From the IMG/VR virus record IMGVR_UViG_3300025832_000009, positions 1 to 57,978 of that record: a DNA stretch of 57,978 nt; one strand, written 5' to 3'. The position numbers and the translations under genes are program-made. The first letter of the stretch is position 1, and every line of letters starts with the position of its first letter. Below are positions 2,476 through 54,307 of the stretch, one piece after another. The notes below the pieces were generated by a model that saw only the letters and a list, made by a program, of their open reading frames with translations, was not told the DNA's origin and made no database searches. The stretch comes from a virus. Taxonomy: Duplodnaviria; Caudoviricetes.

Positions 2476-2943
2476 ATGAAATTCAAGACTAGATTTCGTA
2501 AAAATTACGATAGAAGAGAACCTAATGCAGACTACTTAAAGTACTGGAAGGTTGTAAAACAATGGGCTAGAGCTAGATACGATCTAGGAACTGCCGATAT
2601 TGAAATGATGCTGTTTCTTTACAGTGAAGGACTGTTCACCAAGTTTCAGTTTGAAGAATTTAATGAGATTATGTCCTGGGATAAGAACAGGTTTCATAAA
2701 ATGTTGAAAGATGAGTGGATAATTAAATGGCGTGAACGTAAAGGAAGAGAATCTACCCTATACGAACTTGGATTTAAAGGTAAGCGCGTATGCGCTTCAA
2801 TTTATAAAAAGCTAAACAAGGAAGAAACCATCTCCGAAGACCGAAGACGGAATCCCATGTTTAATAAATCTACCGAATACAGTAATAAAGTGTACCGTAA
2901 AATGATAAAAAAAATGAATCAAGAGGTAAAAGGTAATTTATAG
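2476..2943 (+). CDS. Putative winged-helix DNA-binding regulator
   Basis: DLGTADIEMMLFLY...KMLKDEWI...LYELGFKGKR resembles MarR-type wHTH; only plus-strand gene in this block. Confidence 0.55.
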   Translation: MKFKTRFRKNYDRREPNADYLKYWKVVKQWARARYDLGTADIEMMLFLYSEGLFTKFQFEEFNEIMSWDKNRFHKMLKDEWIIKWRERKGRESTLYELGFKGKRVCASIYKKLNKEETISEDRRRNPMFNKSTEYSNKVYRKMIKKMNQEVKGNL

Positions 2944-3195
2944 CACCACAACTATGTCGTGTTCCGATATGATGCTGACCATGTTCTCATTTAATATCAT
3001 GGAGTGTCCTGCACGCTTATCATAGTAAATATTATCACCTGCCTTAACTGTATCCACATCTGTTCCAGGGATAACTACTAACCCTTTCTTATACCTAAAT
3101 TGGTCGCTGTCATCTGACGTCAAAAGGATTCCAGAGTTAGTTGTTATCTGTTCTTTTATTTCTTCAATTACTATATGTTTCCCGATTGCTTTCAT
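2938..3195 (-). CDS. groES: Co-chaperonin GroES
   Basis: MKAIGKHIVI, mobile loop TTNSGILL, KGLVV..G..VKAGD, ISEHDIV; next to groEL. Confidence 0.85.
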   Translation of the reverse strand: MKAIGKHIVIEEIKEQITTNSGILLTSDDSDQFRYKKGLVVIPGTDVDTVKAGDNIYYDKRAGHSMILNENMVSIISEHDIVVVL

Positions 3196-3339: not shown

Positions 3340-4911
3340 TTATTTTCTTTTCATTGTTACTATTGCGTTTGTACTTAGTATTGTTGTGGCTACACTCACT
3401 GCATTCTTCAGCGCGTTCTTAGTAACCTTCGCAGGATCTATAACACCCATCTTATACATGTCCCCATATACCTTATTCTTCACATCGTACCCGTAATTCT
3501 TAGGTACATCTGCGCATGAGCATACTTTATCTCTTATTTCTTTAACATCTTCACCTGCATTTGTAAGAATCTGCTCAATTGGAGCTATAAGCGCCCCATA
3601 TAACACATCACTCGCGTGTCCGTCACCCAAATCTTCCGCACATCTAAGCAGTGCTATACCACCTCCTGGTAATATCCCCTCCTCAATAGCAGAACGTACC
3701 GCACACACAGCGTCTTCTACCCTGTCATACTTCTCTTTCTGCTGAATATCAGAGTTCGCACCAACATATATCACCCCAACCTTACCAGTTAGCAGCGAAA
3801 TACGCTCATCTATGAAATCTCTATCATTTTTATTGGTATTATGCTCCTTCTGAACCTTCAACTCCTCTATCCTAGTCTGAATGTCCTCAGTTCTCTCACC
3901 CTCTTTGATGATAATAGTCTCGTTTTTCCCAACCACAATCTTATCCGCATGGCCTAAGTCCTCCATAGACAACATCCCAATGTTATCCCCTTGTGACTCA
4001 CTGAAGTATTTCGCACCTACAGCCAGTGCAATATCACTCATAAGCTCATTGGTCTTATATCCAAACGATGGTGGTATAATATTACAAAGCTTCAAGTTAT
4101 TCTGCATTACATTCGCAGCCAAAGTATTAGTCACGTTTGATGCGCAATTCCCAATAATTAAAAGCTTCTTGTTCTGGTTTATAATAGGCTTCAGTACACC
4201 CTCAATCTGTAATATGTTCGTTATCTCCATATCAGTCATCAATATGTGAACATCATCCAAGATACACTCGTCATTACGATGATTGTTTATAAACAACTTC
4301 GATGAATACCCCCTGTCAATCTTAATACCCTTCGTAATGTCAATATACGTGTCCTCAGTCTTACTATTCTCAACAGTAAGCTTACCATCTTTACCCAAAT
4401 CACCATAAGCATCGGCAATCATCTTACCCAAATCCTTATCATTGTTCGTAGATATAGTAGCAACATCACGCAAAGTATTCCCAGACACCTTCTTAGAAGA
4501 CTTGTCCAAGCTCTTAATAACATCCTCTGAAATTTTACTGATGTCACGAGCAAGTTGACTCGTATTTATATTCGGCTCACGATCTATCAGTCGCATACCC
4601 TCCCTTATAATAGCCTCAGTTAAAACTATCGCTGTTGTCGTTCCATCACCAGCTGAAGTAGCAGTCCTATCAGAAGCCTCCTTCATCATCTTTACCGCTA
4701 AATTCTCTACAGGATCTTCGAACTCTATCTCCTTGGCAACAGTTACACCATCCTTGGTGATAATCATTCCCCTAGTGTGATTCATAGACTCCATCATCAC
4801 AGTATTACCTAATGGCCCTAATGTGCTTTTTACAGTCTTGGACATCTTAGTAATGCCCTCTAATAATTTTTCTCTCCCCTGCTTGTCAAAATGTAATTCC
4901 TTTGGATTCAT
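3340..4911 (-). CDS. groEL: Chaperonin GroEL (phage-encoded, no GGM tail)
   Basis: STLGP, ITKDGVTVAKEI, AGDGTTTA, GGGIAL and GVIDPAKVT motifs. Confidence 0.97.
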   Translation of the reverse strand: MNPKELHFDKQGREKLLEGITKMSKTVKSTLGPLGNTVMMESMNHTRGMIITKDGVTVAKEIEFEDPVENLAVKMMKEASDRTATSAGDGTTTAIVLTEAIIREGMRLIDREPNINTSQLARDISKISEDVIKSLDKSSKKVSGNTLRDVATISTNNDKDLGKMIADAYGDLGKDGKLTVENSKTEDTYIDITKGIKIDRGYSSKLFINNHRNDECILDDVHILMTDMEITNILQIEGVLKPIINQNKKLLIIGNCASNVTNTLAANVMQNNLKLCNIIPPSFGYKTNELMSDIALAVGAKYFSESQGDNIGMLSMEDLGHADKIVVGKNETIIIKEGERTEDIQTRIEELKVQKEHNTNKNDRDFIDERISLLTGKVGVIYVGANSDIQQKEKYDRVEDAVCAVRSAIEEGILPGGGIALLRCAEDLGDGHASDVLYGALIAPIEQILTNAGEDVKEIRDKVCSCADVPKNYGYDVKNKVYGDMYKMGVIDPAKVTKNALKNAVSVATTILSTNAIVTMKRK

Positions 4912-7079: not shown

Positions 7080-7310
7080 ATGGGAAAACGAAAAAGAATA
7101 GTACGCATACAAGTGGGAGAACTCAATGCGTTAATTGAACAACAGAAGAACAAGTTTGAAAGATCAAAGAGTATGTATGCAGAGGTCGTGCAAGACATCA
7201 TGAAAGAAAATGATTGCTCCTGGACCGAGGCTAAACAGATATACAAGTTCAAGAAAGTAAGCCAAGGCATCAAGAGAGAGATAGATTTATTAAATTGTTC
7301 ACACCCATAG
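7080..7310 (+). CDS. Early hypothetical protein
   Basis: ORF with A-rich leader. Confidence 0.65.
   Translation: MGKRKRIVRIQVGELNALIEQQKNKFERSKSMYAEVVQDIMKENDCSWTEAKQIYKFKKVSQGIKREIDLLNCSHP
7294..7309 (+). repeat. Dispersed motif ATTGTTCACACCCATA, copy 1
   Basis: Identical 16-mers at 9367 and 11731. Confidence 0.85.
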
Positions 7311-8690: not shown

Positions 8691-9383
8691 ATGGAAACAA
8701 AACAATTAGTGTACAAGATGCTAACAGAGAACACGGGTAAACACTTCTTAGATAGTGGTGGTACTGATGGGAGAATGTGGCAGAGAAACCAACGTAAAAC
8801 AATGCAGGACTTTGAGGATGAAGATGAGGAGTCTTATGTATTTGACTATAGGTATGGAGATATAGAGAGGACTGTATCTGTGTTTCACTTCCTAACTAAC
8901 AACCTAGAGATAGATGATATCTGTGAGGAGTTTAACAGACTACAAGATGAGAATGACAATTGGGATGCGGTGTGTAATCTATACGGTGTATCTACAGAGG
9001 CATATGAAATGCTAGACGAGTTACATGATATAGAGATAGAGAGTACATGGAACACGTACAACGGAGACTCTGACCTATCGCAGATATTGCAGGGTAGTAA
9101 CCTTATTATTGATGGGGAGTATTACCATATCATACAGATACATAATGGTGCAGATGCTAGGGGAGGGTACACGCATGCCAGGATGTTCAAGGGTGGTGAC
9201 CATTGTGATGGCATGATACACGAATACCTTTGGGAGTATAAGGATAGATGTGAGATACAAGACGATATAGATCAGGGGTATCTAACTGATATAAAAGATA
9301 TCGATGACGAATCTATTACATATACAAGTAAAGAAATATTAAAACGTTGTGAAGAACTTAAATCAGATTGTTCACACCCATAA
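8691..9383 (+). CDS. Acidic early protein (ENTG.HFLDSGG...GRMWQRN family)
   Basis: Conserved-looking motifs WNTYNGDSDLSQ and QIHNGADARGGYT. Confidence 0.75.
   Translation: METKQLVYKMLTENTGKHFLDSGGTDGRMWQRNQRKTMQDFEDEDEESYVFDYRYGDIERTVSVFHFLTNNLEIDDICEEFNRLQDENDNWDAVCNLYGVSTEAYEMLDELHDIEIESTWNTYNGDSDLSQILQGSNLIIDGEYYHIIQIHNGADARGGYTHARMFKGGDHCDGMIHEYLWEYKDRCEIQDDIDQGYLTDIKDIDDESITYTSKEILKRCEELKSDCSHP
9367..9382 (+). repeat. Dispersed motif, copy 2
   Basis: ATTGTTCACACCCATA. Confidence 0.85.
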
Positions 9384-11730: not shown

Positions 11731-11746
11731 ATTGTTCACACCCATA
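11731..11746 (+). repeat. Dispersed motif, copy 3
   Basis: ATTGTTCACACCCATA, intergenic. Confidence 0.85.
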
Positions 11747-24926: not shown

Positions 24927-27900
24927 TTAAAAAGATTTAGGATTAAACGATTTTCCACTTTTCTTTTTTCCTTTCTCATTACCAAAAGAAGCTGGTGAAA
25001 AAGATTTATCATTTTTACTTTTGCTATTTGTTTTTTCAACTTTACGATCCTTACCTTGATCTATTCTTTTTAGTTGCTTTGCTTCATTATCTATCATTTT
25101 TTGAGAAGGATTTTTAATACCTCTCTGATTTAGTACAGCTTCAGCTTCTACAATATAATCAACTTTCTCTTCTATTTCTCTTGATTTACCTATATCCTTA
25201 AAAGCTCTTTCAGCAATATATCCTACTTCACTTGAATTTAAAACAGGGACACCAATTAAATGCATAGCATAAGCCATAGTCGTCATTTTCAAGGCGTTTA
25301 ATTTTTCAGGGTCTATTTCAGCTTTACTTTCTCTACCCATAAAAACAGTGGTCTTTTCTCCTGTAACAATTGTTTTAATCATATCAGCAAGTATTACTGC
25401 TTTTTTTGCACCGATTCCTAATGTACCTAGTTGGTCAATTATTTTTTTATCTGTCTTTGCAAAGAACTGAAATGGATTATCCTCATCGTCTTGAAACATA
25501 GACATCAATCCGTTTATTTTATTTAAACTTTCGTCATTTAAAATAGGTATTGGAACAAGAATATCTGCTAATGCATTTCCAGTTCTACCTATTAACCTTT
25601 GATTAAACTCTTTCTCTCTTTTTTCTTCTCTTGCTCTTTTATTAGCATATCTGTTTAAATTCGGGTCTTCTTCTTCTCCTGATATTAATCTTGCGGCAGC
25701 AGCTAATGTTTGAGTTATTCCTAAACCAATAGCATTAAACATTGCTGTTTCTACACCTAAACCTCCCAATGACCTAAGCGCTCTAGTCTTATCACCTGGA
25801 AGAGCAGTTGGGTTATTAGTTAAAGTATTTATATCTGAATACATTCTTGTTTTTTGATTTAACAAAAAGTTTGCAAAAGGAAATAATGTTTTACGAACCA
25901 TTTGAGAACCAAAGTTTTGATTAGTAAACAAGTCTCCTTGAAGGTCTTGGTCAGATGTATTTTGTTGCCTATCCACTTGTTGCTGTGCATACTGTGCAGC
26001 TTTTTTGTCTAATGGTTTAGACCAATCAATATTAGTAGTATCTCCTCCATCTTTTTTTACTTGCTGAATATAATAAGCAATAAAAGAAGCTCTTGCTGTC
26101 TGAACATCTGGATACACCAAGAAAGCTTCAAGTGTCTTTTTATTTATTTTATCAGCAGCATCAATTACTCTACCTCCTTTTGTCTGTGCTTTCTTTTTAA
26201 TTCTACTATCAGCATTTTCAATATCTGATTGAGATTGTATTCCCCTGTTAGCAATAGGTAAGCCTGAATTGTCTATAGCCTTTTGAACCTCAGCATCAAA
26301 AATTAACTTAGATCCTTTTAATGTATTGCTGAGACCTGCATTAAACATTGTGTTAAAAATAGGAACTATTTGTTTTACAAACTGAGTTGGCCCACCTAAA
26401 ACTCTAGACACACCTAATGTAGCAACCTTATTCAAACGATTTAAAGCTCTTTTTGTTGAACCATCAACATATTTTTTACCTCGTTTAGAATCTACATAGC
26501 TATTTATTCTTTCATTAATTATTTCTTTTGCTGATTCATTTGTAAAAACTTCGTTAAAAGCTTTTGACTCTCTAGCTCCTTTCACTTGTTGTATAGAAGG
26601 GGCTGTATATATATCAGTTAAAGCAGCTTTATAATTACTCATATTCTGAGCATCAAAACTTAAGTTTAATACATCTCCTGTCTCAAGAGAACCAGGTTTA
26701 GTAGCTTCTTTTAAAACACCTGTTTTTTTGTCGTAAGCGCTTTTTCTTTTATTTCCTTCAGGATTAAAAACAGGTTGTGTTATATCTACATCTTCTGCTT
26801 TTGGTTGCTTTACTTTTTGAATGTTTCTAGGAGTATAGTTAGTATCTTTTCCTAAATTCTTGTTATATACATTCAAGGACGTATCAGCTAATTCATTATA
26901 TTTTTTAGCCCAGATTTCCGTAACATATTTTACTCCATCTAAATTTGCAGGGTCTGCTTTACTTTCAACGTCCTCTATAGAGTTAGAGTCTTTCAAAAGC
27001 TTATCATATTGAGCTTTAACAATCTCACCTTTTTTAACTTTTAACTTGTCTCCTGAAGCCATAAGTCTCTCATAAGTTTGCTGAATAAGTTTCTTACTCT
27101 TTTCAAATTCCTTTTGTTCTTTCCCTGGTGTAAACCTCCTTACATCTGCTAATATACCTCTTTGAGTATCATTGGATTCGTCAAAGTATATACCATCTTG
27201 CATTTTCTTTTTTGCAAATTTATCTGCATAATCTTTCTCTGTATTAGCTGCTTCTTTTTGAGCTTTTGCGCTACCGTTTATTATTCCATCAAGCCCTAAA
27301 GCCTCCATAACCATTCTCGCCTTCTGTTGAGACTTAAATGTAAGTTCAAAGACATTAGGTAAAGTGGATATTTGTTTATTCCAAAACTTACCTAAGCCAA
27401 ATAATGATTTGTTTTCAGTATTTTTAATTCCTTTATTTTTTAAACGAGTTATTTTAGTATTACCAACTTGCTGCATTAGAGAAGCCTCCATTCCACCCGT
27501 AGATTGGTTAAGCTCAAAATTAACTATCGAATCTAATGCTTCCAATTTTTGCTTGGTAGTCATTAGACTTAAGTCCATGTTTAAAAAATTATTGATTAAA
27601 GTTTTTTGAGTCTTGGTAACCTTTATGTCTCCAGACTCTATAGCTCCTTTTATATTTATCTTAGTGTTTTTAAAAGCGTTATTTGCTGCTTTATCAATTG
27701 CGTTCTTTTTATCCTTAAGAATCTGTGCATCTGTTTCAGAAGTATTTGTTGAACCATCTACCTCATACAGTATCTCTTTCATTTGGTCAAGAGTTAAGTC
27801 CCCTGGTTCTAGCCCTGTCAATTCTTGAAATGACTCTTTGGCTAACTCATAGTTTCTTTCTGATTCTAATTCAGTTTCTTTTTTTGAATACTCCTCAATT

Positions 27901-30900
27901 TTTTTAATATCAAAAGGCTTACTTACTTTAAGTTCCCCCTTAGATGGTTTCTTAGTTGGTGTAAGACCATTACTAATTTCAGATGCTTTTTCTAAATATG
28001 TATCAATATCGTTTACATTGCTTGGATTTACTTGAGTAAATTTCTTTGCAGCGTCAGACAGTCCAGCTTCTTTACCTTTTAATTTATTCTTAATAGATTT
28101 TTGAAGTTTTTTAGCCTTATCTAGCTTATTAGAATACTCAGCATCATTCATTGCTCTTGTAGTAAAATCTATTACGTCTTGAACTTTCTTGGCGTTATAT
28201 AAATTTACATTAGAAACTTTTTTAAGTAATGAGTTTGCTTTTTTAGTTGTAATATTACCTGCTTTCAGAACTAAATCTATAGCCCCCTGTAATCCTTTTC
28301 TTCTTTTGTTTACATCGTTTTTAGCATTTCTAGCAACCCTAGCTTCCTTCTGAAGATCTTTCTTCATTGCCGAATAGTCGCTCTTTACTTTAATAGTCTT
28401 AGGCTTTCCTTTTATTTTTGTAGAGGCTATTATAGATTTATAAGTATTAGCTGTTACTGTCTGACTGTTTGTCTTTCCTATAGCATCTACTTCAGCTTTA
28501 ACTGCTCCTTCAGATTTAGCGTACAAGTCTATTTCTGCATTTGAAAATTCCGTATCACCCCTAGCTATTTTTAAAGCTAAGGCTCTTTCTTTAGATTGTG
28601 TTTTGGGTTGTTGTTTTTTCTTTTGAGCAACCGCATTATCTATTGCTTCTTTATTTTCTGCGTAAAACTGAATAGCATCTTCAGAAAAAGATTCTTGATT
28701 TCCTCCTTCAACAATACGATTTGCAAATGACTCTATTTTATTGTTCACACTCATATCTCCCTCTGTTGAGGTAGGTTCTGTTAACTGTTCAACATCTGTC
28801 TGCGTAGTCGTGTCGCTAGGCTTATCGGTTTGCGTTTCACCTTCTTCGATTTGCGTGTCGGTAGTGACTTGCTCAACGTCTCCTTCTCCCACTTGTTGCA
28901 ATTCCACTTCGGAGTCTTTCCCTCCTTCTGTGCTTGTTGGAGCATCTGGTAGCACTTGCTCCTCTGTGCTTGGCTTTGAAATGGCATCTTTTCCTTTTTT
29001 AATTAATACTGGCAACTCTACATCAATAGTGTATGTTTTTTTTCCTCTCTTAGTTCCTTGTCTTTTTATTTTTACCTCAATACCTGGATAAGCTTTTTTT
29101 ATTTTTTCAACTTCAGCTTCAGCTTTAGCTTTATCATCAGTCTTAAAAGGATCATAAGCAGCTTGACCTTTCTCTTCTACAGATTGTTTTGTTGCATCAC
29201 TATATTTTGTGGTATTAGTAACAACGTTACCATCGGCATCGGTCTCTACATCTAAATTAGATTTATTGAAAGTCCTAAGTCCACCCTCAGAAATAGTAGT
29301 CGTTTCAACAACTCTTGCGCCATCAGGTAATGTAGCATCAGCAGATGTAATCATATTCTTAAACGCACCACCTGTAGACTCCATTTTTGCTGAAAACTTA
29401 TTTGTTGGCCTTCCGTTTTCATAAACCCTAACATATCCGACAAAGTTTTCTTTGTTTTTAGAAGTTATAATAACATCTAAAATACCTGTCTCTGGATTTA
29501 CATAAGTTGCTGTTGATACCCCTTCTTTATCAAGACTTGTAACGTTTGATATGTTTGCTTCTCCTTTAGGATTAGAGGGAGTTACTAACCTTTTGTCTGT
29601 ATGATATTCTCTAAGTCGGTCTTTTGGAACTTGCTTTTCTGTGCTTGGCTTTGAAATGGCATCTTCTTTTTGTTTTGTTAATTCTTCTTGAACTTGTAAT
29701 TCGTCTTTTTTATATAGAGCATCTAGTTGCTGGTCAACAGCCGCTATCTGTTTATCAATTCTAGCTTTACCTGGGCCTTCTAGTCCCTGTTTTTTGTTTA
29801 TTAAATTCTGTCTTTGAGTTAATAAATCAGATGCAGGTTGTAAGTTTTCAGAAACTTTTATAGTCCCTTGAGTTTTTAACTCAGCTGACTGCATATTGTA
29901 AATTTCTGTATATGCATTTGAAGCCTCTTTTTCAGTCAAAGAACCTTCTTTAACTAAAACATCTAATGTAGATTGTAAATCTTTAACATTTGCTGCTGCA
30001 AGCCTAACTAAGTTAGACCTTCTATTTCCTGACAATAAATTTTTAGCACCCAAACCAGAGGTAGCTCCTACGGTCATTACTACAGTTTCCATTATACCTG
30101 CCTTTGTAATTTTGTCACTTAAAACTTCGTTTCCAATATGTCTATTCACCAAATGGTTTATACCCTTTTCAGAAAAATAAACTGGAAGCTCTTCTATAAA
30201 AAGTTCTTTAGCGTTTTCTTTTAACAAACCCTTGCCCTTATCTACAAGTTGTTTTACTGTGAATTTTTTACCTTCTTTTAATGCTAGGTTTTTAATCTGG
30301 TCTTTAATTCCTGTAAAACCTGTTAGTAATTTTTGATTACCACCTGCTAATCCAGAGAATATACCATCTAAAGTAGATATTGCCTGACCTGCATTAACAG
30401 CTATATTCATAGCTTCTTTTTCAGACATACCTGAAGCTACTAGCTGAGACCTTACGTCCTCCACGTTCCCTGTAATACCACTTGCAAAAGAAGTAATTCC
30501 CATTCCTAGACCAGCTCCTTTAGGGCCTTTAAATCCTAGTTTCTTTGTTACTTTTCCTGATGTTCTAATTAAGCCGTATAAGTGTACAAGCATGCCTACT
30601 CCTCCTTGAGTTACAGATCCTGCTGTCCAATTAGTTACAGTCTCTGTAACATCTTTAGATAGTGTTTGTATTTCTTTTATTTTTTCAGGAGAAATAATCC
30701 CATCCATTCTTATGTTCGTATTTGCATCATATACTGTTCCATTTTCATCAACAATATATTGTTTACCCATACTTAAAACTGGCTTTCCGTCTAAAAAAGC
30801 AGATCTTTTTACTGCGCCAGTTGTGATATCAAGAGTCTCCTTACTTTGGGTAAACATTTCTTCAAGGCTTTTTAAAACACCTTTATTATCAAATTTATCA

Positions 30901-32429
30901 TCTCCCTTCCCTATAGTTGCAATCCTTTGGTCAAAAAAAGCAGGTATAGAAGCGAAAAAATCAAGACCAAAACCAGCCAAACTATTTCCTGCAACAGCAA
31001 GTAACTCAACTAATCCTTGACCTCCTTCAGCTGCTCCACCTTCCTGAGCGGCCTCATACATTGCTTTTCTTCTTCTTAAGTCAGTATCCTCTGTGTATTT
31101 TGTAAGCACAGGAAAATCTTTAATAGTAGTAGAAATGCTTTCAACTTTTGCGTAAAATTCTTTGGTTAATTCTTTTCCCTCATTTTTTAATTCTTTTATC
31201 TGTTTAGGGTCAGAGGTTAAATCTATTTTCGCTTGAATTTGATTTAATCTCTTACTAATTTGATTAAGTTGTGCCGTCTTGTATGATTGAACTTTTTCAT
31301 AATAATTTTTTTGTTCAAAGTACTCATCACCTTCATCATCTGTAAGAAGTTTCTTCATCCACTTGTATACACCAGTTTCGTTCCTAGTGTTTTTCTTTTC
31401 CCACTTTAAATAATCTGTTACATCACCACCATCATTTTTAATAAGGCTTGTTAAAAATGCGTTAGCATTTCCAACCTCTCCTTCATCAAGATCAACATCT
31501 GAGTAATTTGGAGTTTGAACATCTTGAGTTGCAATTTCGTATGTTTCAACGGCTTCTAATAATTCTGGGCTAAGTTCTGATTCTTTCTTAAATTCTTTTT
31601 GACCTGTTTCTGGATTAATAAATCCATATTCTTTTTCTGGTGTGACATTTACGTTTATACCTTCTTTATCAAAATCAATAGTGTTTAAAACATTTCCTGA
31701 GTTCTCTTCTTTATAAGCCAAATATCCTGAATCTAATAGCAGCTTGTTTTTTTTATTAGAATCATATGAAGGCTTCCAGCTTCCTTTTCCATATGCTAAT
31801 GCTGATTTTTCATCTTTACCAAACTCTATAACTTCACCTCTTTTCTTAGCTTCTTCATATACAGGCTCCCAGTTTTGTTTTGCCTCTTCAGACATGTCAA
31901 CAAAACTTCCATCTTCATTTTGAAATACTGTAGGGAATGAAAACCAATTACCTTGACCATCTGTTTCGGTCTTCATTTTATGAGTAGACACACTTCCGTC
32001 TTCATTTTTAAGTGTACCTGACCTAGACGGTGCTTCAGGAATTAAAGTTTCAATCTCTTCTTCTACGACAGGAAATTCAACAAATGGTGCTAAGTCACCA
32101 TTATCATCTTGCACTAAAGGTATTACAGCTACTTCATCTTGCTCTTCTAAAGAATCCGAAGAGCCAGGAGTTGTTTCCGTTTCTGTAATGGATTCCGTAA
32201 CTTCCTCTTGACCATCTGAAGGAGTATCGACTTGATTTTTTTTTTCAGCCCAAGCAGATGTAAATACATCAAGAGTGGTTTCTGAGCTTATTATTTTTTC
32301 GTCAACACCTTGCTTATATAGGGCTTCCTGTATAGAAGAGTCTGATTGAGAAAATTGCTCAAAGCTAGTTTCTTTACTTAACAATCCCTGTTCAATATAA
32401 CTTTCGTATAGAGCTTTTAATTTATCCAT
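24927..32429 (-). CDS. Very large internal virion/ejection protein (2500 aa, modular)
   Basis: Last of three helical genes after the tail module, typical podovirus position; no RNAP motif seen. Confidence 0.75.
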   Translation of the reverse strand: MDKLKALYESYIEQGLLSKETSFEQFSQSDSSIQEALYKQGVDEKIISSETTLDVFTSAWAEKKNQVDTPSDGQEEVTESITETETTPGSSDSLEEQDEVAVIPLVQDDNGDLAPFVEFPVVEEEIETLIPEAPSRSGTLKNEDGSVSTHKMKTETDGQGNWFSFPTVFQNEDGSFVDMSEEAKQNWEPVYEEAKKRGEVIEFGKDEKSALAYGKGSWKPSYDSNKKNKLLLDSGYLAYKEENSGNVLNTIDFDKEGINVNVTPEKEYGFINPETGQKEFKKESELSPELLEAVETYEIATQDVQTPNYSDVDLDEGEVGNANAFLTSLIKNDGGDVTDYLKWEKKNTRNETGVYKWMKKLLTDDEGDEYFEQKNYYEKVQSYKTAQLNQISKRLNQIQAKIDLTSDPKQIKELKNEGKELTKEFYAKVESISTTIKDFPVLTKYTEDTDLRRRKAMYEAAQEGGAAEGGQGLVELLAVAGNSLAGFGLDFFASIPAFFDQRIATIGKGDDKFDNKGVLKSLEEMFTQSKETLDITTGAVKRSAFLDGKPVLSMGKQYIVDENGTVYDANTNIRMDGIISPEKIKEIQTLSKDVTETVTNWTAGSVTQGGVGMLVHLYGLIRTSGKVTKKLGFKGPKGAGLGMGITSFASGITGNVEDVRSQLVASGMSEKEAMNIAVNAGQAISTLDGIFSGLAGGNQKLLTGFTGIKDQIKNLALKEGKKFTVKQLVDKGKGLLKENAKELFIEELPVYFSEKGINHLVNRHIGNEVLSDKITKAGIMETVVMTVGATSGLGAKNLLSGNRRSNLVRLAAANVKDLQSTLDVLVKEGSLTEKEASNAYTEIYNMQSAELKTQGTIKVSENLQPASDLLTQRQNLINKKQGLEGPGKARIDKQIAAVDQQLDALYKKDELQVQEELTKQKEDAISKPSTEKQVPKDRLREYHTDKRLVTPSNPKGEANISNVTSLDKEGVSTATYVNPETGILDVIITSKNKENFVGYVRVYENGRPTNKFSAKMESTGGAFKNMITSADATLPDGARVVETTTISEGGLRTFNKSNLDVETDADGNVVTNTTKYSDATKQSVEEKGQAAYDPFKTDDKAKAEAEVEKIKKAYPGIEVKIKRQGTKRGKKTYTIDVELPVLIKKGKDAISKPSTEEQVLPDAPTSTEGGKDSEVELQQVGEGDVEQVTTDTQIEEGETQTDKPSDTTTQTDVEQLTEPTSTEGDMSVNNKIESFANRIVEGGNQESFSEDAIQFYAENKEAIDNAVAQKKKQQPKTQSKERALALKIARGDTEFSNAEIDLYAKSEGAVKAEVDAIGKTNSQTVTANTYKSIIASTKIKGKPKTIKVKSDYSAMKKDLQKEARVARNAKNDVNKRRKGLQGAIDLVLKAGNITTKKANSLLKKVSNVNLYNAKKVQDVIDFTTRAMNDAEYSNKLDKAKKLQKSIKNKLKGKEAGLSDAAKKFTQVNPSNVNDIDTYLEKASEISNGLTPTKKPSKGELKVSKPFDIKKIEEYSKKETELESERNYELAKESFQELTGLEPGDLTLDQMKEILYEVDGSTNTSETDAQILKDKKNAIDKAANNAFKNTKINIKGAIESGDIKVTKTQKTLINNFLNMDLSLMTTKQKLEALDSIVNFELNQSTGGMEASLMQQVGNTKITRLKNKGIKNTENKSLFGLGKFWNKQISTLPNVFELTFKSQQKARMVMEALGLDGIINGSAKAQKEAANTEKDYADKFAKKKMQDGIYFDESNDTQRGILADVRRFTPGKEQKEFEKSKKLIQQTYERLMASGDKLKVKKGEIVKAQYDKLLKDSNSIEDVESKADPANLDGVKYVTEIWAKKYNELADTSLNVYNKNLGKDTNYTPRNIQKVKQPKAEDVDITQPVFNPEGNKRKSAYDKKTGVLKEATKPGSLETGDVLNLSFDAQNMSNYKAALTDIYTAPSIQQVKGARESKAFNEVFTNESAKEIINERINSYVDSKRGKKYVDGSTKRALNRLNKVATLGVSRVLGGPTQFVKQIVPIFNTMFNAGLSNTLKGSKLIFDAEVQKAIDNSGLPIANRGIQSQSDIENADSRIKKKAQTKGGRVIDAADKINKKTLEAFLVYPDVQTARASFIAYYIQQVKKDGGDTTNIDWSKPLDKKAAQYAQQQVDRQQNTSDQDLQGDLFTNQNFGSQMVRKTLFPFANFLLNQKTRMYSDINTLTNNPTALPGDKTRALRSLGGLGVETAMFNAIGLGITQTLAAAARLISGEEEDPNLNRYANKRAREEKREKEFNQRLIGRTGNALADILVPIPILNDESLNKINGLMSMFQDDEDNPFQFFAKTDKKIIDQLGTLGIGAKKAVILADMIKTIVTGEKTTVFMGRESKAEIDPEKLNALKMTTMAYAMHLIGVPVLNSSEVGYIAERAFKDIGKSREIEEKVDYIVEAEAVLNQRGIKNPSQKMIDNEAKQLKRIDQGKDRKVEKTNSKSKNDKSFSPASFGNEKGKKKSGKSFNPKSF
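28740..28755 (+). repeat. Dispersed motif, copy 6 (inside 2500-aa gene)
   Basis: ATTGTTCACACTCATA. Confidence 0.8.
28781..28987 (-). CDS. Overprinted small basic protein MPFQSQAQR...KWEKET
   Basis: Alternative frame of the large gene; A-rich leader; resembles stand-alone MPFKSKAQR phage proteins. Confidence 0.55.
   Translation of the reverse strand: MPFQSQAQRSKCYQMLQQAQKEGKTPKWNCNKWEKETLSKSLPTRKSKKVKRKPISLATRLRRQMLNS
28954..29665. repeat. 37-bp direct repeat (28-bp identical core) flanking a 675-bp in-frame segment
   Basis: TCTGTGCTTGGCTTTGAAATGGCATCTT at 28963-28990 and 29638-29665. Confidence 0.85.
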
Positions 32430-35885: not shown

Positions 35886-36638
35886 CTAAGGATTACTTTT
35901 GAATGCATCTGAATCAACAGTAAAAAGTTCAACGGCACTAGTATTTGAATTACTAAGTTTAAACTGCAAGAAGTAACCCAACGTCCCATAAGACTCAGCA
36001 ACGCTATTTTTAACATATAATATATATGATACAGGAACAGTACCTGCATATGTTGGAGCTGCTATTGTAATTGTTTTTCTATCTTGACTTATGCCTGTTA
36101 TTGTTCCTATTTCTACAGGTCCGATAATTGAGTTTGTATATGCAACATCACCTATACTCATTATTGAATTAATAGCAAAAGAAAAAGTTAATGTTATAGG
36201 TGCTGGACCTACACCTGTTGTACTTAAAAGCGTACCTAATCCTTGAGCTGACCTTAACGCTAAATTATCAACCCCATCTAGTCTTCTTATAAAGGCAAAG
36301 AAAGCCCCTTCTTTTTCAACAAAATAACTATCTGGCATATACCCTGCTCCAAGATCAGATACTAGCTCACAATTCCAGGCATCATCACTTTCTAGTTCAA
36401 TGGTCTTAAATACTTTAGTAGCTGTTGGCTGTTCATTAAAAACACCAGTTATTGTAGAGTCATAATTAACTCCGTAATAATTATTTCTTGTTTCATTGGT
36501 ATTATGCCTATAAAGATTTCCACCTTTAAAAGAATATAAATATTGATTCATTCCCAAAGCAAAATCTGGAAAATAGCTGTAAAATGAAGGCCATCCATTT
36601 ACAGACTCACTATATGTTAAGGTATAATTTTCTCTCAT
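35886..36638 (-). CDS. Tail protein (stabilisation protein C-terminal-like)
   Basis: LTYSE..NGWPSFYSY, KVFKTIELES, EKEG. Confidence 0.7.
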   Translation of the reverse strand: MRENYTLTYSESVNGWPSFYSYFPDFALGMNQYLYSFKGGNLYRHNTNETRNNYYGVNYDSTITGVFNEQPTATKVFKTIELESDDAWNCELVSDLGAGYMPDSYFVEKEGAFFAFIRRLDGVDNLALRSAQGLGTLLSTTGVGPAPITLTFSFAINSIMSIGDVAYTNSIIGPVEIGTITGISQDRKTITIAAPTYAGTVPVSYILYVKNSVAESYGTLGYFLQFKLSNSNTSAVELFTVDSDAFKSNP

Positions 36639-51878: not shown

Positions 51879-52442
51879 TTATATAGCTAAAGTTATTTGA
51901 TGGTCAAACATTCTATACAGTTTTTCTCCATCTACCATAAACTCATATTCGCTTTCAGGCTTAAAAGAAACTTTGTCTCCATTGTTAACACCCTTACTAA
52001 CTAGGTATTTGTTTGAGTATTTAACTAGACCCATTAACGGTTCTTCTTCTTCGTGGCTTTTTAGGTAGTAGTCTTCTTTTTTTACAGGCTTAATCATACA
52101 ATATTTAGAATGTGAATTCCAAGTATCATTATTTTTGTACATAAAAAATTGATCGTTGTCTATAAAAAATAAATCATCTTTAAAAAAACTTTTTCCGCTT
52201 TTCTCTCTACCCTTCATGTCATTATAATATTTAAAAACATTATGATGAACTAAAAGAGTATCTCCTATTTGAACAGGACCATTATAGTTTATTGGAGTCT
52301 CAATGACTATTGCGTATCTGTTAGATGCAGTGTGGTCTTCTTTTGAAGTGCTGGTAATAAAGTCTATGTTACCAATCTTTTTTGTGTTGTCGTATCTCCT
52401 ATCGTCTTTAGGTTTTACTATAAAATAAAAAGGTGATTTCAT
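51879..52442 (-). CDS. Tandem GroES-like-domain protein
   Basis: Two repeats: FIVKP...AIV..P....VQIGD..V.HN and CMIKP...GLVKY...GVNNGD.V.F....E.E...DGEKLYRM. Confidence 0.6.
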   Translation of the reverse strand: MKSPFYFIVKPKDDRRYDNTKKIGNIDFITSTSKEDHTASNRYAIVIETPINYNGPVQIGDTLLVHHNVFKYYNDMKGREKSGKSFFKDDLFFIDNDQFFMYKNNDTWNSHSKYCMIKPVKKEDYYLKSHEEEEPLMGLVKYSNKYLVSKGVNNGDKVSFKPESEYEFMVDGEKLYRMFDHQITLAI

Positions 52443-52672
52443 TCAAAATATATATTGTACTCAATTGAAACAGGCATAGAAGAATTAAATTCTTTCCAAA
52501 GAAATATTTCTCCTTTTTTGTTTTCAATAAAAATAGTTAGTGATTGATTTGATTCATTTTTCTTAATTAAATGAATCATATGAGTACCACCAAATATCTC
52601 TTGATCTACAATATAATGCATAGCTCCTGACTTATAATCAGCACCTATTGATATTTTTCTAATTTGTTCCAT
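52439..52672 (-). CDS. Hypothetical protein (IRKISIG.DYK..AMHY)
   Basis: First gene of the packaging operon; TATATTTG box at 52689-52696. Confidence 0.7.
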   Translation of the reverse strand: MEQIRKISIGADYKSGAMHYIVDQEIFGGTHMIHLIKKNESNQSLTIFIENKKGEIFLWKEFNSSMPVSIEYNIYFE

Positions 52673-52699
52673 TTAATTTAATTTACAACAAATATAAAC

Positions 52700-52730
52700 A
52701 AAAAAAAATACCTCCGAATCAACAGAGGTA
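52700..52730 (-). terminator. Rho-independent terminator
   Basis: TACCTC...GAGGTA stem plus T-run. Confidence 0.6.
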
Positions 52731-52741
52731 CTTTGTTAGAA

Positions 52742-52820
52742 GCAAGCAGCAAACCATCCCTTGGACTATCCAAGGAGCGAACCACGCCTTAGACTAGCTA
52801 AGGCTCAAACCACTGCTTGC
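52742..52820 (-). ncRNA. Pseudo-symmetric three-way-junction element
   Basis: 8-bp closing stem, two homologous hairpins with a compensatory change, three C(A/G)AACCA linkers at 28-nt period. Confidence 0.6.
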
Positions 52821-52827
52821 ACTTATG

Positions 52828-53823
52828 TTAACTTACAGTTCTTGAAATCATAGAACTATGTCCCTGAGCTATTTGATAGGCCTGTATTTCTGATGTCCCA
52901 CTCAGGTCGCTCTGGTATTGAAATGTAATTGCGTCTGATAAATCCCCCATTATGTATGGAGTTTGTTTATTTGTATTTGTCCAAGTAGGGTTCGGTATTC
53001 CTATAGCAAACTTAAAATATGCTTTTCTCGACTTGCTTGTGCTATCCCAAGGAGTATTTGTATTAAACCTATTTTGTGCAGTCCCTGATTTTAACAAGCA
53101 CCTAAAACCTAGGTCGTTATTAATAGTTACAGGAAACGAAGTAAACGGCGTTAAAAGGTCACCTTTATCAAATAGAAATTGCAGGGGATTTATAGGCACT
53201 TCTACATAAGCCGTGCTGTTTACAGTTTTAAAGTCTGTAATAGTTACCCCTGGAGTGACCACTGGGTTTTGAAATTTTTGCACGTAGTTCAAATCCCCGT
53301 TAAAATTCCATTCTGTAGTTATTGGGAATAATTCACTGGGATTGCCTTGATCGTCAACATAGTTTTGAGGTGATGAACACCAATTACTTCCTGGAAAATT
53401 TGTTTGTATATATTGGCCATTCAAGTGGGAGGGGTGAACATAATTTCCGCGCTTAAACGGGGTTCCACCATCGGACGTATTTGATGGTCTATATCTAAAT
53501 AAGAAAAGCCTCGGGTTATTATCTAACCATCTTTTGTCGAACTGGGTAGGGACACTAATACACAACGCCCTTTGTTTTAATGATGGGCCAGAGGCTTGAT
53601 ATGGATTTGGACTACCTGACTTATACACCCACATTTGAGGTGTAGGTATTTGTATACCGCCAACATAAGAAGAATTTCCAATAAACTCTGCTATATCATC
53701 AAATTTAAATGTTTTTGTTTGCAAAGGGGTTGGAGATGAACTTCCATGTGTTCCAATAACATAATCATCTCCATTTACTGGATTTTGATTAGGGTAACTA
53801 TTTGTGTTACTTATTTTTGCCAT
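52828..53823 (-). CDS. Fibre/decoration protein, paralogue A
   Basis: N-terminus MAKISN.SYP...DY.IGT...LQTK.F...DIAEF shared with the next gene. Confidence 0.6.
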   Translation of the reverse strand: MAKISNTNSYPNQNPVNGDDYVIGTHGSSSPTPLQTKTFKFDDIAEFIGNSSYVGGIQIPTPQMWVYKSGSPNPYQASGPSLKQRALCISVPTQFDKRWLDNNPRLFLFRYRPSNTSDGGTPFKRGNYVHPSHLNGQYIQTNFPGSNWCSSPQNYVDDQGNPSELFPITTEWNFNGDLNYVQKFQNPVVTPGVTITDFKTVNSTAYVEVPINPLQFLFDKGDLLTPFTSFPVTINNDLGFRCLLKSGTAQNRFNTNTPWDSTSKSRKAYFKFAIGIPNPTWTNTNKQTPYIMGDLSDAITFQYQSDLSGTSEIQAYQIAQGHSSMISRTVS

Positions 53824-53824
53824 A

Positions 53825-54307
53825 CTATGATACTGCTTGTATTACAATCCAATTTGAACCATCAGACCAAAATTGCGCTCCGTTGTAAGGTTTGTTTACA
53901 TTATAAAAACTAGCACCATTTACAGTTTCTGCTCCAGGTCCTAATACATGTATTTTATCACTTGCATTTAGAGTTCCATCTGTTACAAGTCTTATTATTC
54001 TATAAGGAGTACTTGTTGCTGATGGTAGTGTTAATTCGTAAGTTCCATTACTACCTGTCCAAGTGGCGTATATTGTGTTTTTGCTTGAAGAGTAAGAGGA
54101 AGAACCTCCTGAACTAGCGGTTACTAAAAAAGGATTAGAAGTATCTACAGTTGTTTGATTTTGAACAAACTCAGCAATATCAGCGAGCGTAAATACTTTT
54201 GTTTGTAAAGAAGGGTTAGTAGCTACACCATCTGTACCAATTAAATAATCTTTAGCATTAACATCTGTTTTTACAGGATATGATGAAATGTTACTAATCT
54301 TTGCCAT
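53825..54307 (-). CDS. Fibre/decoration protein, paralogue B
   Basis: Shared N-terminus; LTLP...SDGSNW fibre motif; TATCTTTG box at 54331-54338. Confidence 0.65.
   Translation of the reverse strand: MAKISNISSYPVKTDVNAKDYLIGTDGVATNPSLQTKVFTLADIAEFVQNQTTVDTSNPFLVTASSGGSSSYSSSKNTIYATWTGSNGTYELTLPSATSTPYRIIRLVTDGTLNASDKIHVLGPGAETVNGASFYNVNKPYNGAQFWSDGSNWIVIQAVS

Follow-up and report, generated by a model that had tools for sequence, protein, structure and literature searches.

Structured RNAs described from phages of Bacteroidota are, to our knowledge, few, and we found none among them that is tied to a receptor-binding or tail-appendage gene. The element considered here is a three-way-junction structure located between the stop codon of a 331-aa gene (p331) and an intrinsic terminator in the IMG/VR virus record IMGVR_UViG_3300025832_000009; the whole record of 57,978 bp was analysed and is referred to below as the window. 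Several described systems resemble the element in one respect or another. The packaging RNA (pRNA) of the phi29 type is a phage RNA with a three-way-junction core that works with an oligomeric protein ring. Exonuclease-resistant RNAs (xrRNAs) are three-way junctions with duplicated units in viral 3′ untranslated regions (3′ UTRs) and probably serve to shield or generate a stable 3′ fragment. The put RNA of HK022 is likewise phage-encoded, has ~70 nt and two hairpins, and works in cis in the vicinity of terminators. Small RNAs (sRNAs) of 3′ UTRs and stabilisers of the repetitive extragenic palindromic (REP) kind are structured RNAs placed between a stop codon and an intrinsic terminator and co-transcribed with the gene. 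Type III antitoxins (ToxI, CptI, TenpI and pseudo-ToxI) combine short tandem repeats and a terminator with a phage or defence setting and a threefold assembly: a type III locus is defined by tandem nucleotide repeats, a terminator hairpin and then a toxin gene, the ToxI array consists of 5.5 tandem repeats of one 36-nt sequence before a ToxN-type toxin gene, each repeat is predicted to inhibit the toxin, and ToxIN is a triangular 3:3 complex (PMC3401426).

In this work we have analyzed the architecture, distribution and neighbourhood of the element, which is very probably a selected RNA structure of the sense strand belonging to the p331 module. It is inherited with p331 and not with the packaging genes.

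Architecture and conservation of the junction element

The element is built of three tandem units (Table 1). In each unit the 3′ half of the previous stem is followed by a conserved unpaired heptamer (J), then by the next stem's 5′ half and lastly by a pentamer; the third unit pairs back with the first, by which the junction is closed. The parts listed in a preliminary description of the locus are all in place: on the plus strand the closing stem (GCAAGCAG at 52742-52749 and CTGCTTGC at 52813-52820), the linkers CAAACCA, CGAACCA and CAAACCA (from 52750, 52778 and 52806), and the hairpins CCTTGG-ACTAT-CCAAGG and CCTTAG-ACTAG-CTAAGG, one compensatory pair apart. Its 28-nt periodicity was recovered by a repeat search of the window, with direct copies at 52743, 52771 and 52799 (100, 79 and 61% identity to the first), as was the closing stem in the form of an 8-bp perfect inverted repeat. 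The 35-nt unit pattern occurs twice in the window and in none of 100 dinucleotide shuffles; the bare J heptamer is at chance level there (11 found, 10.75 expected). The element starts 7 nt past the p331 stop codon, the closing stem ends 7 nt short of the terminator, and 2 nt separate the tail pentamer from the terminator. The context given earlier, a site between a fibre gene stop and a terminator and ahead of the terminase and portal genes, agrees with the open reading frames (ORFs) and with a terminator scan, which marks a separate hairpin and no arm of the element; no element arm is followed by the U-run of an intrinsic terminator.

In total 52 distinct sequences of the element were collected, falling into at least four types (A-D). 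The site was sampled without bias towards the element by scanning viral and metagenome contigs for the conserved terminator (70 and 72 loci). All types follow a common plan, in which a closing stem carries two hairpins with N-U-N-G-N pentaloops and a conserved unpaired motif occurs three times, and three units, never two or four, are spanned by every model match that is not cut by a contig end. Type A has J UGGUUYG and loops NUAGU, with type-B-like UUUGU loops at two loci (L427 and L452; L numbers denote single loci or contigs). Type B is characterized by J CARUUAG, by loops UUCGU, UUUGA, CUUGA or UUUGU, by the closing stem GAGGNN/NNCCUC and by the tail UUCGC; type C has the closing stem GGGGAG/CUCCCC, and type D has longer hairpins and units. 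The J motif is wholly different between the types (UGGUUYG, CARUUAG, AGUGU and others). Near-identical phages carry the same element with few changes, and in L122 the base of hairpin 2 shows a C-G to A-U swap (ACUUGG/CCAAGU), the A.G intermediate of which is held by L126. More distant phages have the same plan in quite different sequence, as read in the 260 nt upstream of p77, the first gene of the downstream packaging operon, in 80 relatives.

Covariation was judged on MAFFT alignments that had not been fitted to any structure. In type B (14 sequences) 84.1% of the cells are paired against 68.4 ± 1.7% in shuffles, a control that carries a caveat for related sequences, and 16 of the 22 pairs have changed on both sides, which is reached by none of 500 shuffles; partners slid along the alignment give 36-54%. 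The corresponding values for type A (10 sequences) are 95.5% paired against 86.9 ± 1.2%, 8 of 22 pairs changed on both sides (0/500 shuffles) and 31-55% for slid partners. Within type A the closing stem is 100% paired, its pair 7/74 being A-U in seven sequences and G-C in three; in helix 2 three of seven pairs have changed on both sides and 92.9% of the cells are paired, and in helix 3 four of seven have so changed. The slid controls and the variety of the stems (ACAUC/GAUGU, GCAUCC/GGAUGC, GUUUCC/GGAAAC, GCUUC/GAAGC, CCUUGG/CCAAGG, UUAC/GUAA) point the same way as the shuffles. The threefold plan proposed in the preliminary description is thus conserved and covarying in types A and B.

A single MAFFT alignment across all four types was dropped because type A was misaligned in it, so that homology across types rests on covariance models. 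A model made of type B only and run with filters off places its best match on the site in types A (8.6-26.6 bits), C (13.0 bits) and D (18.3 bits), with just two matches off the site in the loci tried, both at E > 1. Covariance model R2, composed of nine type-B copies plus a single copy from each of types A, C and D with the window copy excluded, detects six type-A copies that had been held out, with scores of 30-40 bits; the window copy scores 39.7 bits (E 8.2e-8), the next match in the window having E 1.5. The model search suggested for the element yielded further members of the family. The absence of any recognised family was upheld as well: Rfam 15 gives no match in the whole window or in seven loci with types A-D. 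Relaxing the threshold to E ≤ 10 over 52600-52950 returned five sub-threshold matches, the top two due to the terminator hairpin, and ARAGORN finds no tRNA or tmRNA gene in the window. Judged from these alignments and models, it is well supported that types A-D form one RNA family outside Rfam, the fold of which is under selection.

Dispersal like that of REP sequences or miniature inverted-repeat transposable elements is not seen, the element being present in a single copy in the record and once per related locus over 746 kb. An R2 scan of 151 sampled Flavobacteriaceae genomes gave four weak matches at 25-28 bits, where ~7.5 are expected by chance at the cut-off used, and none has the three-unit plan; the element is thus not a REP-type host repeat. 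A look-alike was noticed in a bacterial chromosome (L380:2865-2950, from genome contigs), after a gene for a 161-aa cell-wall hydrolase and before a long terminator hairpin. Its three CAATTAG linkers recur every 28 nt, its two 7-bp hairpins are identical and a closing stem is present, but R2 scores it at only 13.6 bits (E 0.65); the genes on this chromosome contig include ThrC, GlnRS/GluRS, GroEL, a HisA-like gene and a Hydrolase_2 gene. The look-alike may have arisen by chance convergence or may point to a wider class. In a CAATTAG-triplet scan of genome contigs (L271-L390, at least 120 matches) those inspected were mostly (CAATTAG)n-like short tandem repeats, and the matches listed span cyanobacteria, Acidobacteriota, Bacteroidota and archaea. 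When viral contigs were scanned for J triplets, coding and simple repeats dominated the matches, and L119 was the one real match.

The nucleotides outside the helices are conserved unevenly. Pairwise identity in type B reaches 94.3% in the J heptamers and 97.1% in the tail pentamer against 35.1% in the spacers, and in type A 88.9% in J against 39.2% in the spacers. Over the 52 distinct sequences the pentaloops are nearly always N-U-N-G-N and mostly Y-U-N-G-N, the most frequent being TTTGT, TTCGT, CTTGA, TTTGA, CTAGT and ATAGT. The J motifs and the loop positions U2 and G4 are thus kept in sequence while the adjacent spacers drift. By eye, in the type-B alignment, no consistent complementarity or covariation was seen that would indicate loop-to-J pseudoknots or loop-loop kissing.

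Several further candidates were tried and rejected. Three mRNA-strand complements of J in the window pair over 7 nt only, and a duplex scan of the element against the start region of p331 gave nothing interpretable. The sequence CTAATT upstream of p77, a possible J target in some type-B phages, occurs also in phages that lack the element. Competition of the type-B closing stem with the terminator through a shared CCTC is not general, being absent from type A. Stop-codon read-through or frameshifting meets in-frame stops within 9-15 codons, and the resulting lengths are unconserved. A target-site hairpin of a diversity-generating retroelement was dismissed, as the 66 distinct window ORFs (17 + 49) searched against Pfam include no reverse-transcriptase family; no long repeat of the p331 3′ end, the expected template, was found either.

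Inheritance and strand of the element

Linkage was counted over 71 distinct terminator-pattern loci that extend at least 400 nt upstream of the terminator. The element is present in all 36 loci in which a p331 homologue reaches the C-terminus (24 of type B, 7 of type A, 4 of type C and 1 of type D) and absent from all 28 without any p331 match; the remaining seven have a 54-aa match only, which is that of the paralogue p160. When 47 loci were sampled by p331 homology instead, an R2 match was found just downstream and on the same strand in each of the 46 holding the 3′ end of the gene, with no other R2 match at E ≤ 0.01; the 47th locus ends inside the gene. The RNA begins 7-45 nt past the p331 stop codon. 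Type A pairs with p331 homologues of 70-100% identity and types B-D with those of 36-43%; the types track the identity classes of the protein and therefore RNA and gene have diverged together. Of the seven loci with the 54-aa match only, L222, L265, L396 and L443 lack both p331 and the element, while L122, L123 and L395 lack p331 and retain the element. In type-B phages a T-run and a TAnnTTTG-like box stand ahead of p331, and the type-B module looks like a promoter, p331, the junction RNA and the terminator.

No such linkage exists with the genes on the other side of the terminator. All 80 relatives fetched through the packaging-operon gene p187 have p77, most of them without the element. The gap at the site is 4 nt in MW202828.1, the closest GenBank relative, and 33 nt in elemoA, Cellulophaga phage phi38:1 has only the terminator and promoter there, and in the near-identical phages L128/L222 the terminator and p77 are kept and the element is absent. 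The preliminary description had tied the element to the terminase-portal operon and suggested an RNA of the packaging type; co-inheritance with the motor genes fails in these relatives, the element following p331 instead, and neither suggestion was borne out. The carriers of the element are uncultured marine phages; as no p331 homologue occurs in 50,697 GenBank phage records and phi38:1 lacks the element, no cultured model was found.

The strand was assessed by folding and by the pattern of base pairs. Over 93 nt the minus strand folds at -34.3 kcal/mol (z -2.63, 1 of 200 shuffles as good), with the three-way junction as centroid and a cross-paired alternative as minimum free energy (MFE) structure. 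The plus strand folds at -31.9 kcal/mol (z -5.39, 0/200), its MFE structure being the three-way junction. Thermodynamics alone cannot choose the strand, because the antisense z is better and the sense MFE structure is cross-paired. RNAfold often prefers a rod-like cross-pairing where both hairpins of one element are identical; local hairpins are supported where they differ (L221, L245, L214), and therefore the three-way junction is favoured over the rod. The gene p331, the genes downstream and the terminator all lie on the minus strand. Among paired cells read on that strand, G.U outnumbers A.C, the plus-strand counterpart of which is G.U, by 20 to 5 in type B and by 6 to 2 in type A (26 against 7 in total), which favours a sense-strand RNA over a cruciform. 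Gene orientation, terminator strand and the G.U excess point to an RNA on the coding (minus) strand.

Possible functions of the p331 3′ end

The p331 protein has 103 homologues, none of them named, and it matches no family of Pfam, PHROG or PADLOC. Its AlphaFold model is beta-rich with a mean predicted local distance difference test (pLDDT) score of 61.8; a Foldseek search against the PDB returned nothing at E ≤ 0.001, and the VIA wide fold search found fibronectin type III (FN3)/Ig-like matches only (Z ≤ 4.5). The N-terminal 54 aa are 54% identical to p160 (E 3e-15), which is the last gene before the terminator in relatives without p331. A homotrimer model of p331 scored 0.65 against 0.00 for the best of three controls and passed the mark of the method. 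Of 30 proteins solved as pairs of one chain 20 reach that mark, and of 23 solved as single chains one does, a calibration that holds only roughly because an alignment of our own and three copies were used. Contact agreement between runs was at least 68% and partner pLDDT at least 68, and the predicted interface involves mainly residues 10-68, i.e. the domain common to p331 and p160. On these models an accessory trimeric tail appendage is a reasonable label for p331, and the earlier term fibre gene is acceptable, given its position at the end of the tail/lysis block and the predicted homotrimer. Sharing of an N-terminal domain, as between p160 and p331, usually indicates that alternative appendages dock on one adaptor.

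Our best explanation as a whole, to which we give slightly less than an even chance, is that the element is a cis-linked 3′-UTR RNA domain of the p331 transcript with three equivalent binding units. It would constitute the last ~85 nt of the minus-strand transcript before the intrinsic terminator, where the three tandem units would fold into the three-way junction and act in cis on the p331 message as a recognised 3′-end module. The three J-plus-loop units may bind a multimeric partner, and such binding might set the stability, yield or assembly of p331. As the numbers match at three, the RNA comes right behind the stop codon and the two have diverged together, p331 in its trimeric form is the obvious candidate for this partner. 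That the element is a multimer-binding control module of the 3′ UTR is proposed tentatively. Of the earlier suggestion of a 3′-UTR element that binds an oligomeric protein, the placement in a minus-strand 3′ UTR stands and the binding is plausible.

A number of observations weigh against this explanation. The p331 protein has no recognisable RNA-binding domain, only weak beta-sandwich matches (Z ≤ 4.5). In the window copy it is the antisense strand that has the better z (-5.39 against -2.63) and the sense strand that has the cross-paired MFE, and the G.U excess may partly reflect a T-rich sense strand. A simple stabilising role looks redundant because an intrinsic terminator already follows. 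In three contigs (L122, L123, L395) a precise deletion has fused the end of p160 with the final two codons of p331 and left the element intact; it can therefore persist without p331, and the C-terminal domain of p331 is unneeded for this. This persistence and the want of a known RNA-binding fold speak in particular against p331 as the sole partner. The RNA-library data consist of assembled contigs alone, in which transcript ends, level and strand are not visible: a single 3,838-nt contig of metatranscriptome X9 spans the whole stretch, as would either DNA carry-over or polycistronic RNA, while the contigs of X16 end within the repeat (52770 and 52784) and those of X17 and X18 are from other strains and leave the element uncovered, so that none of these contigs shows or denies transcription, transcript ends or strand.

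Among the alternatives, a generic 3′-end stabiliser without a specific partner, which would block 3′-to-5′ exonucleases or keep ribosomes away from the terminator, is unlikely but survives best. It accords with the location between stop codon and terminator and with the stable fold, and the type-B p331, which with its own T-run and TAnnTTTG-like box looks like a single-gene unit, would depend on this 3′ end for the fate of its mRNA. However, such a role leaves unexplained why unpaired J and tail sequences are conserved at 94-97% beside spacers at 35%, why the number of units is fixed at three in all 52 distinct copies, and why the element is absent behind other genes at the same terminator (28/28).

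We consider it rather improbable that the junction and terminator together form a trans-acting RNA of ~130-140 nt released from the 3′ UTR, either a regulatory sRNA with three repeated seeds and U-turn loops or a decoy or sponge that titrates a host factor or defence system. A structure in the 3′ UTR followed by a terminator is the usual layout of 3′-UTR-derived sRNAs, the 5′ flank is conserved and A/U-rich, the element survives in the three contigs without p331, and its fast variation between lineages is like that of the parts of an arms race. Yet a seed wholly different from type to type would be hard to reconcile with this, the complements of J in the window are at chance level and pair over 7 nt where they lie on the mRNA strand, no host counterpart was found in the 151 Flavobacteriaceae genomes, and the strict linkage to p331 is left unexplained.

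A more specific form of the cis-acting explanation, which we regard as a long shot, is that the RNA is a threefold scaffold nucleating the trimerisation of p331. Each unit would bind one nascent copy of the conserved C-terminal Y-x-I-x-Q-G...R motif, and the RNA would replace the small chaperone gene often found behind fibre genes and might stay in the particle. The exact number of three units, the predicted homotrimer, the start of the RNA 7-45 nt past the stop codon and the co-divergence of RNA motifs and protein are consistent with such a scaffold; no chaperone gene follows p331.

It is very unlikely that the element is a signal at the DNA level, i.e. a cruciform or set of iterons recognised by terminase (pac-type) or a recombination site for tail-gene cassettes. 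The position just upstream of the packaging operon, the three direct repeats of a 7-bp motif, the recombination hot spot, with different genes upstream of one terminator-promoter block, and the ends of numerous metagenome contigs nearby could be so explained, but assembly breaks are expected near a hypervariable gene and a tandem repeat, and relatives with the same p77, p187 and terminase genes lack the element. The spacing of 28-29 bp is out of helical phase, and the G.U pairs in excess would become A.C mismatches in the other arm of a cruciform, which also disfavours the terminase-recognised cruciform of the preliminary description.

Mimicry of host defence sequences, also raised there, is more doubtful still. 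Unit length and hairpin size recall the repeats of clustered regularly interspaced short palindromic repeat (CRISPR) arrays, but there are no spacers, and R2 detected nothing with the three-unit plan in the 151 sampled Flavobacteriaceae genomes, a scan that lends the CRISPR-repeat mimic no support. The order of tandem 28-29-nt repeats, terminator and gene is that by which type III loci are defined (PMC3401426), and three 28-nt copies are indeed followed by a terminator-like site at 52734-52705. The units are, however, merely 79% and 61% like the first, with stems that differ so that one molecule closes into a junction, and past the terminator p77, p187 and p91 match no ToxN, CptN or TenpN-type gene and no Pfam or PADLOC family, p77 being present in the p187 relatives regardless of the element. 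An antitoxin mimic was therefore not borne out. Least credible of all is a functionless by-product of a recently triplicated palindrome, for which the often identical hairpins (L219, L257, L264), as after duplication or gene conversion, and the L380 look-alike behind an unrelated gene might speak, against retention across p331 homologues down to about 37% protein identity, compensatory stem changes, unpaired motifs conserved beside drifting spacers and a unit number that is never two or four.

Genomic setting and comparison with known RNAs

The window is rated 96% complete and has a podophage-type genome; its phage relatives are the Flavobacterium 'elemo' phages and the Cellulophaga phi38:1 group, and tblastn with the large terminase returned 87 records, the best being MW202828.1 (72.7% identity). 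From 24927 to the end of the window the genes are on the minus strand. In reading order, p331 is preceded by a tail protein bearing a laminin-G-like domain, then by an M15 endolysin and a holin-like protein, and finally by p160, and past the terminator lie the 77-aa p77, the GroES-like 187-aa p187, the 91-aa p91, the large terminase subunit and portal. The box TATATTTG, which is conserved in relatives, fits what we take to be the Bacteroidetes -7 promoter consensus. Coordinates are collected in Table 1.

Table 1 Features of the p331 3′ end and its surroundings in the window
Feature	Coordinates	Strand	Basis or remark
Three-way-junction element, type A, three tandem 28-nt units	52742..52820	minus	Read in sequence; repeats; covariation; model R2
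Closing stem, RNA 5′ strand (GCAAGCAG)	52813..52820	minus	8-bp perfect inverted repeat
Junction motif J1, RNA UGGUUUG	52806..52812	minus	Sequence and unit pattern
Hairpin 1, RNA CCUUAG-CUAGU-CUAAGG	52787..52803	minus	Sequence; helix 2 in type-A alignment
Junction motif J2, RNA UGGUUCG	52778..52784	minus	Sequence and unit pattern
Hairpin 2, RNA CCUUGG-AUAGU-CCAAGG	52759..52775	minus	Sequence; helix 3 in type-A alignment
Junction motif J3, RNA UGGUUUG	52750..52756	minus	Sequence and unit pattern
Closing stem, RNA 3′ strand (CUGCUUGC)	52742..52749	minus	Inverted repeat and covariation
Tail pentamer UUCUA past the closing stem	52737..52741	minus	UUCGC, CUCGU or UUCGU in types B-D; equals the 'loop' of the third unit
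Intrinsic terminator hairpin and U-run	52705..52734	minus	Terminator scan; kept in relatives with and without the element
TATATTTG, presumed packaging-operon promoter	52689..52696	minus	Read in sequence; conserved in relatives
p331, 331-aa accessory tail-appendage gene (putative), element in its 3′ UTR	52828..53823	minus	ORF list, homologues, linkage
p160, p331 paralogue sharing the N-terminal anchor domain	53825..54307	minus	54-aa alignment; weak PHROG baseplate match
p77, first gene of the downstream packaging operon, unlinked to the element	52439..52672	minus	In 80/80 relatives

Terminator hairpin, U-run and TAnnTTTG-like box are together conserved to a high degree as one cassette (52689-52734; L207-L269, L391-L462), which is abutted by at least five unrelated upstream genes and followed by two clades of p77, and near which numerous metagenome contigs end. 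It looks like a recombination linker for the swapping of tail-gene modules. With another upstream gene, in L210, L217, L234, L236, L243 and L254, a different small structure is found upstream of the terminator, consisting of a hairpin GTAGGT-GACTT-ACCTAC and then TTCTT...AAGAA.

Elsewhere in the window a 16-nt motif, ATTGTTCACACCCATA, occurs in four copies (7294-7309, 9367-9382, 11731-11746 and 28740-28755; one copy ends CACTCATA), three of them at gene ends or in intergenic positions of the plus-strand early/replication block. The motif may serve as a promoter of the phage or as a regulator site. Pfam identifies a full Cpn60/GroEL at 3340-4911 and a Cpn10/GroES at 2938-3195 on the minus strand, and p187 (51879-52442), just upstream of the terminase gene, is a second GroES-like protein with a PHROG match only. 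An ORF of 2,500 aa (24927-32429) has no Pfam family, and a 250-aa protein (35886-36638) contains the C-terminal domain of the crAss-phage muzzle, a hint of crAss-like tail architecture in these phages.

The known systems differ from the p331-linked RNA in several ways. Unlike a pRNA of the phi29 type, the element has no Rfam match, occupies ~85 nt of a 3′ UTR instead of forming a separate gene, goes with a tail-appendage gene and not with the packaging genes, and is dispensable in close relatives, and its loops are without consistent mutual complementarity. In contrast to ToxI, its three units differ from each other, pair together in one molecule and follow a structural gene. REP sequences are multi-copy, whereas the element is found in one copy per genome, and 3′-UTR sRNAs are not known to have a pseudo-threefold junction. 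The xrRNAs come from eukaryotic RNA viruses and stop a 5′-to-3′ exonuclease by a ring-like pseudoknot, and no loop-J pseudoknot covariation is seen in the element. The put RNA of HK022, compared here by description only, sits just downstream of promoters and suppresses terminators, whereas the terminator behind the element is unchanged in relatives that lack it. The module of p331, RNA and terminator comes and goes at a recombination hot spot of abundant marine phages. It offers a defined RNA-gene pair for testing whether a phage tail protein is controlled post-transcriptionally or assembled with the help of an RNA. Model R2 picks out the family cleanly, and set beside the described systems its design is easily recognised: three near-equivalent units closed into a junction, constrained unpaired parts and a strict genetic partner.

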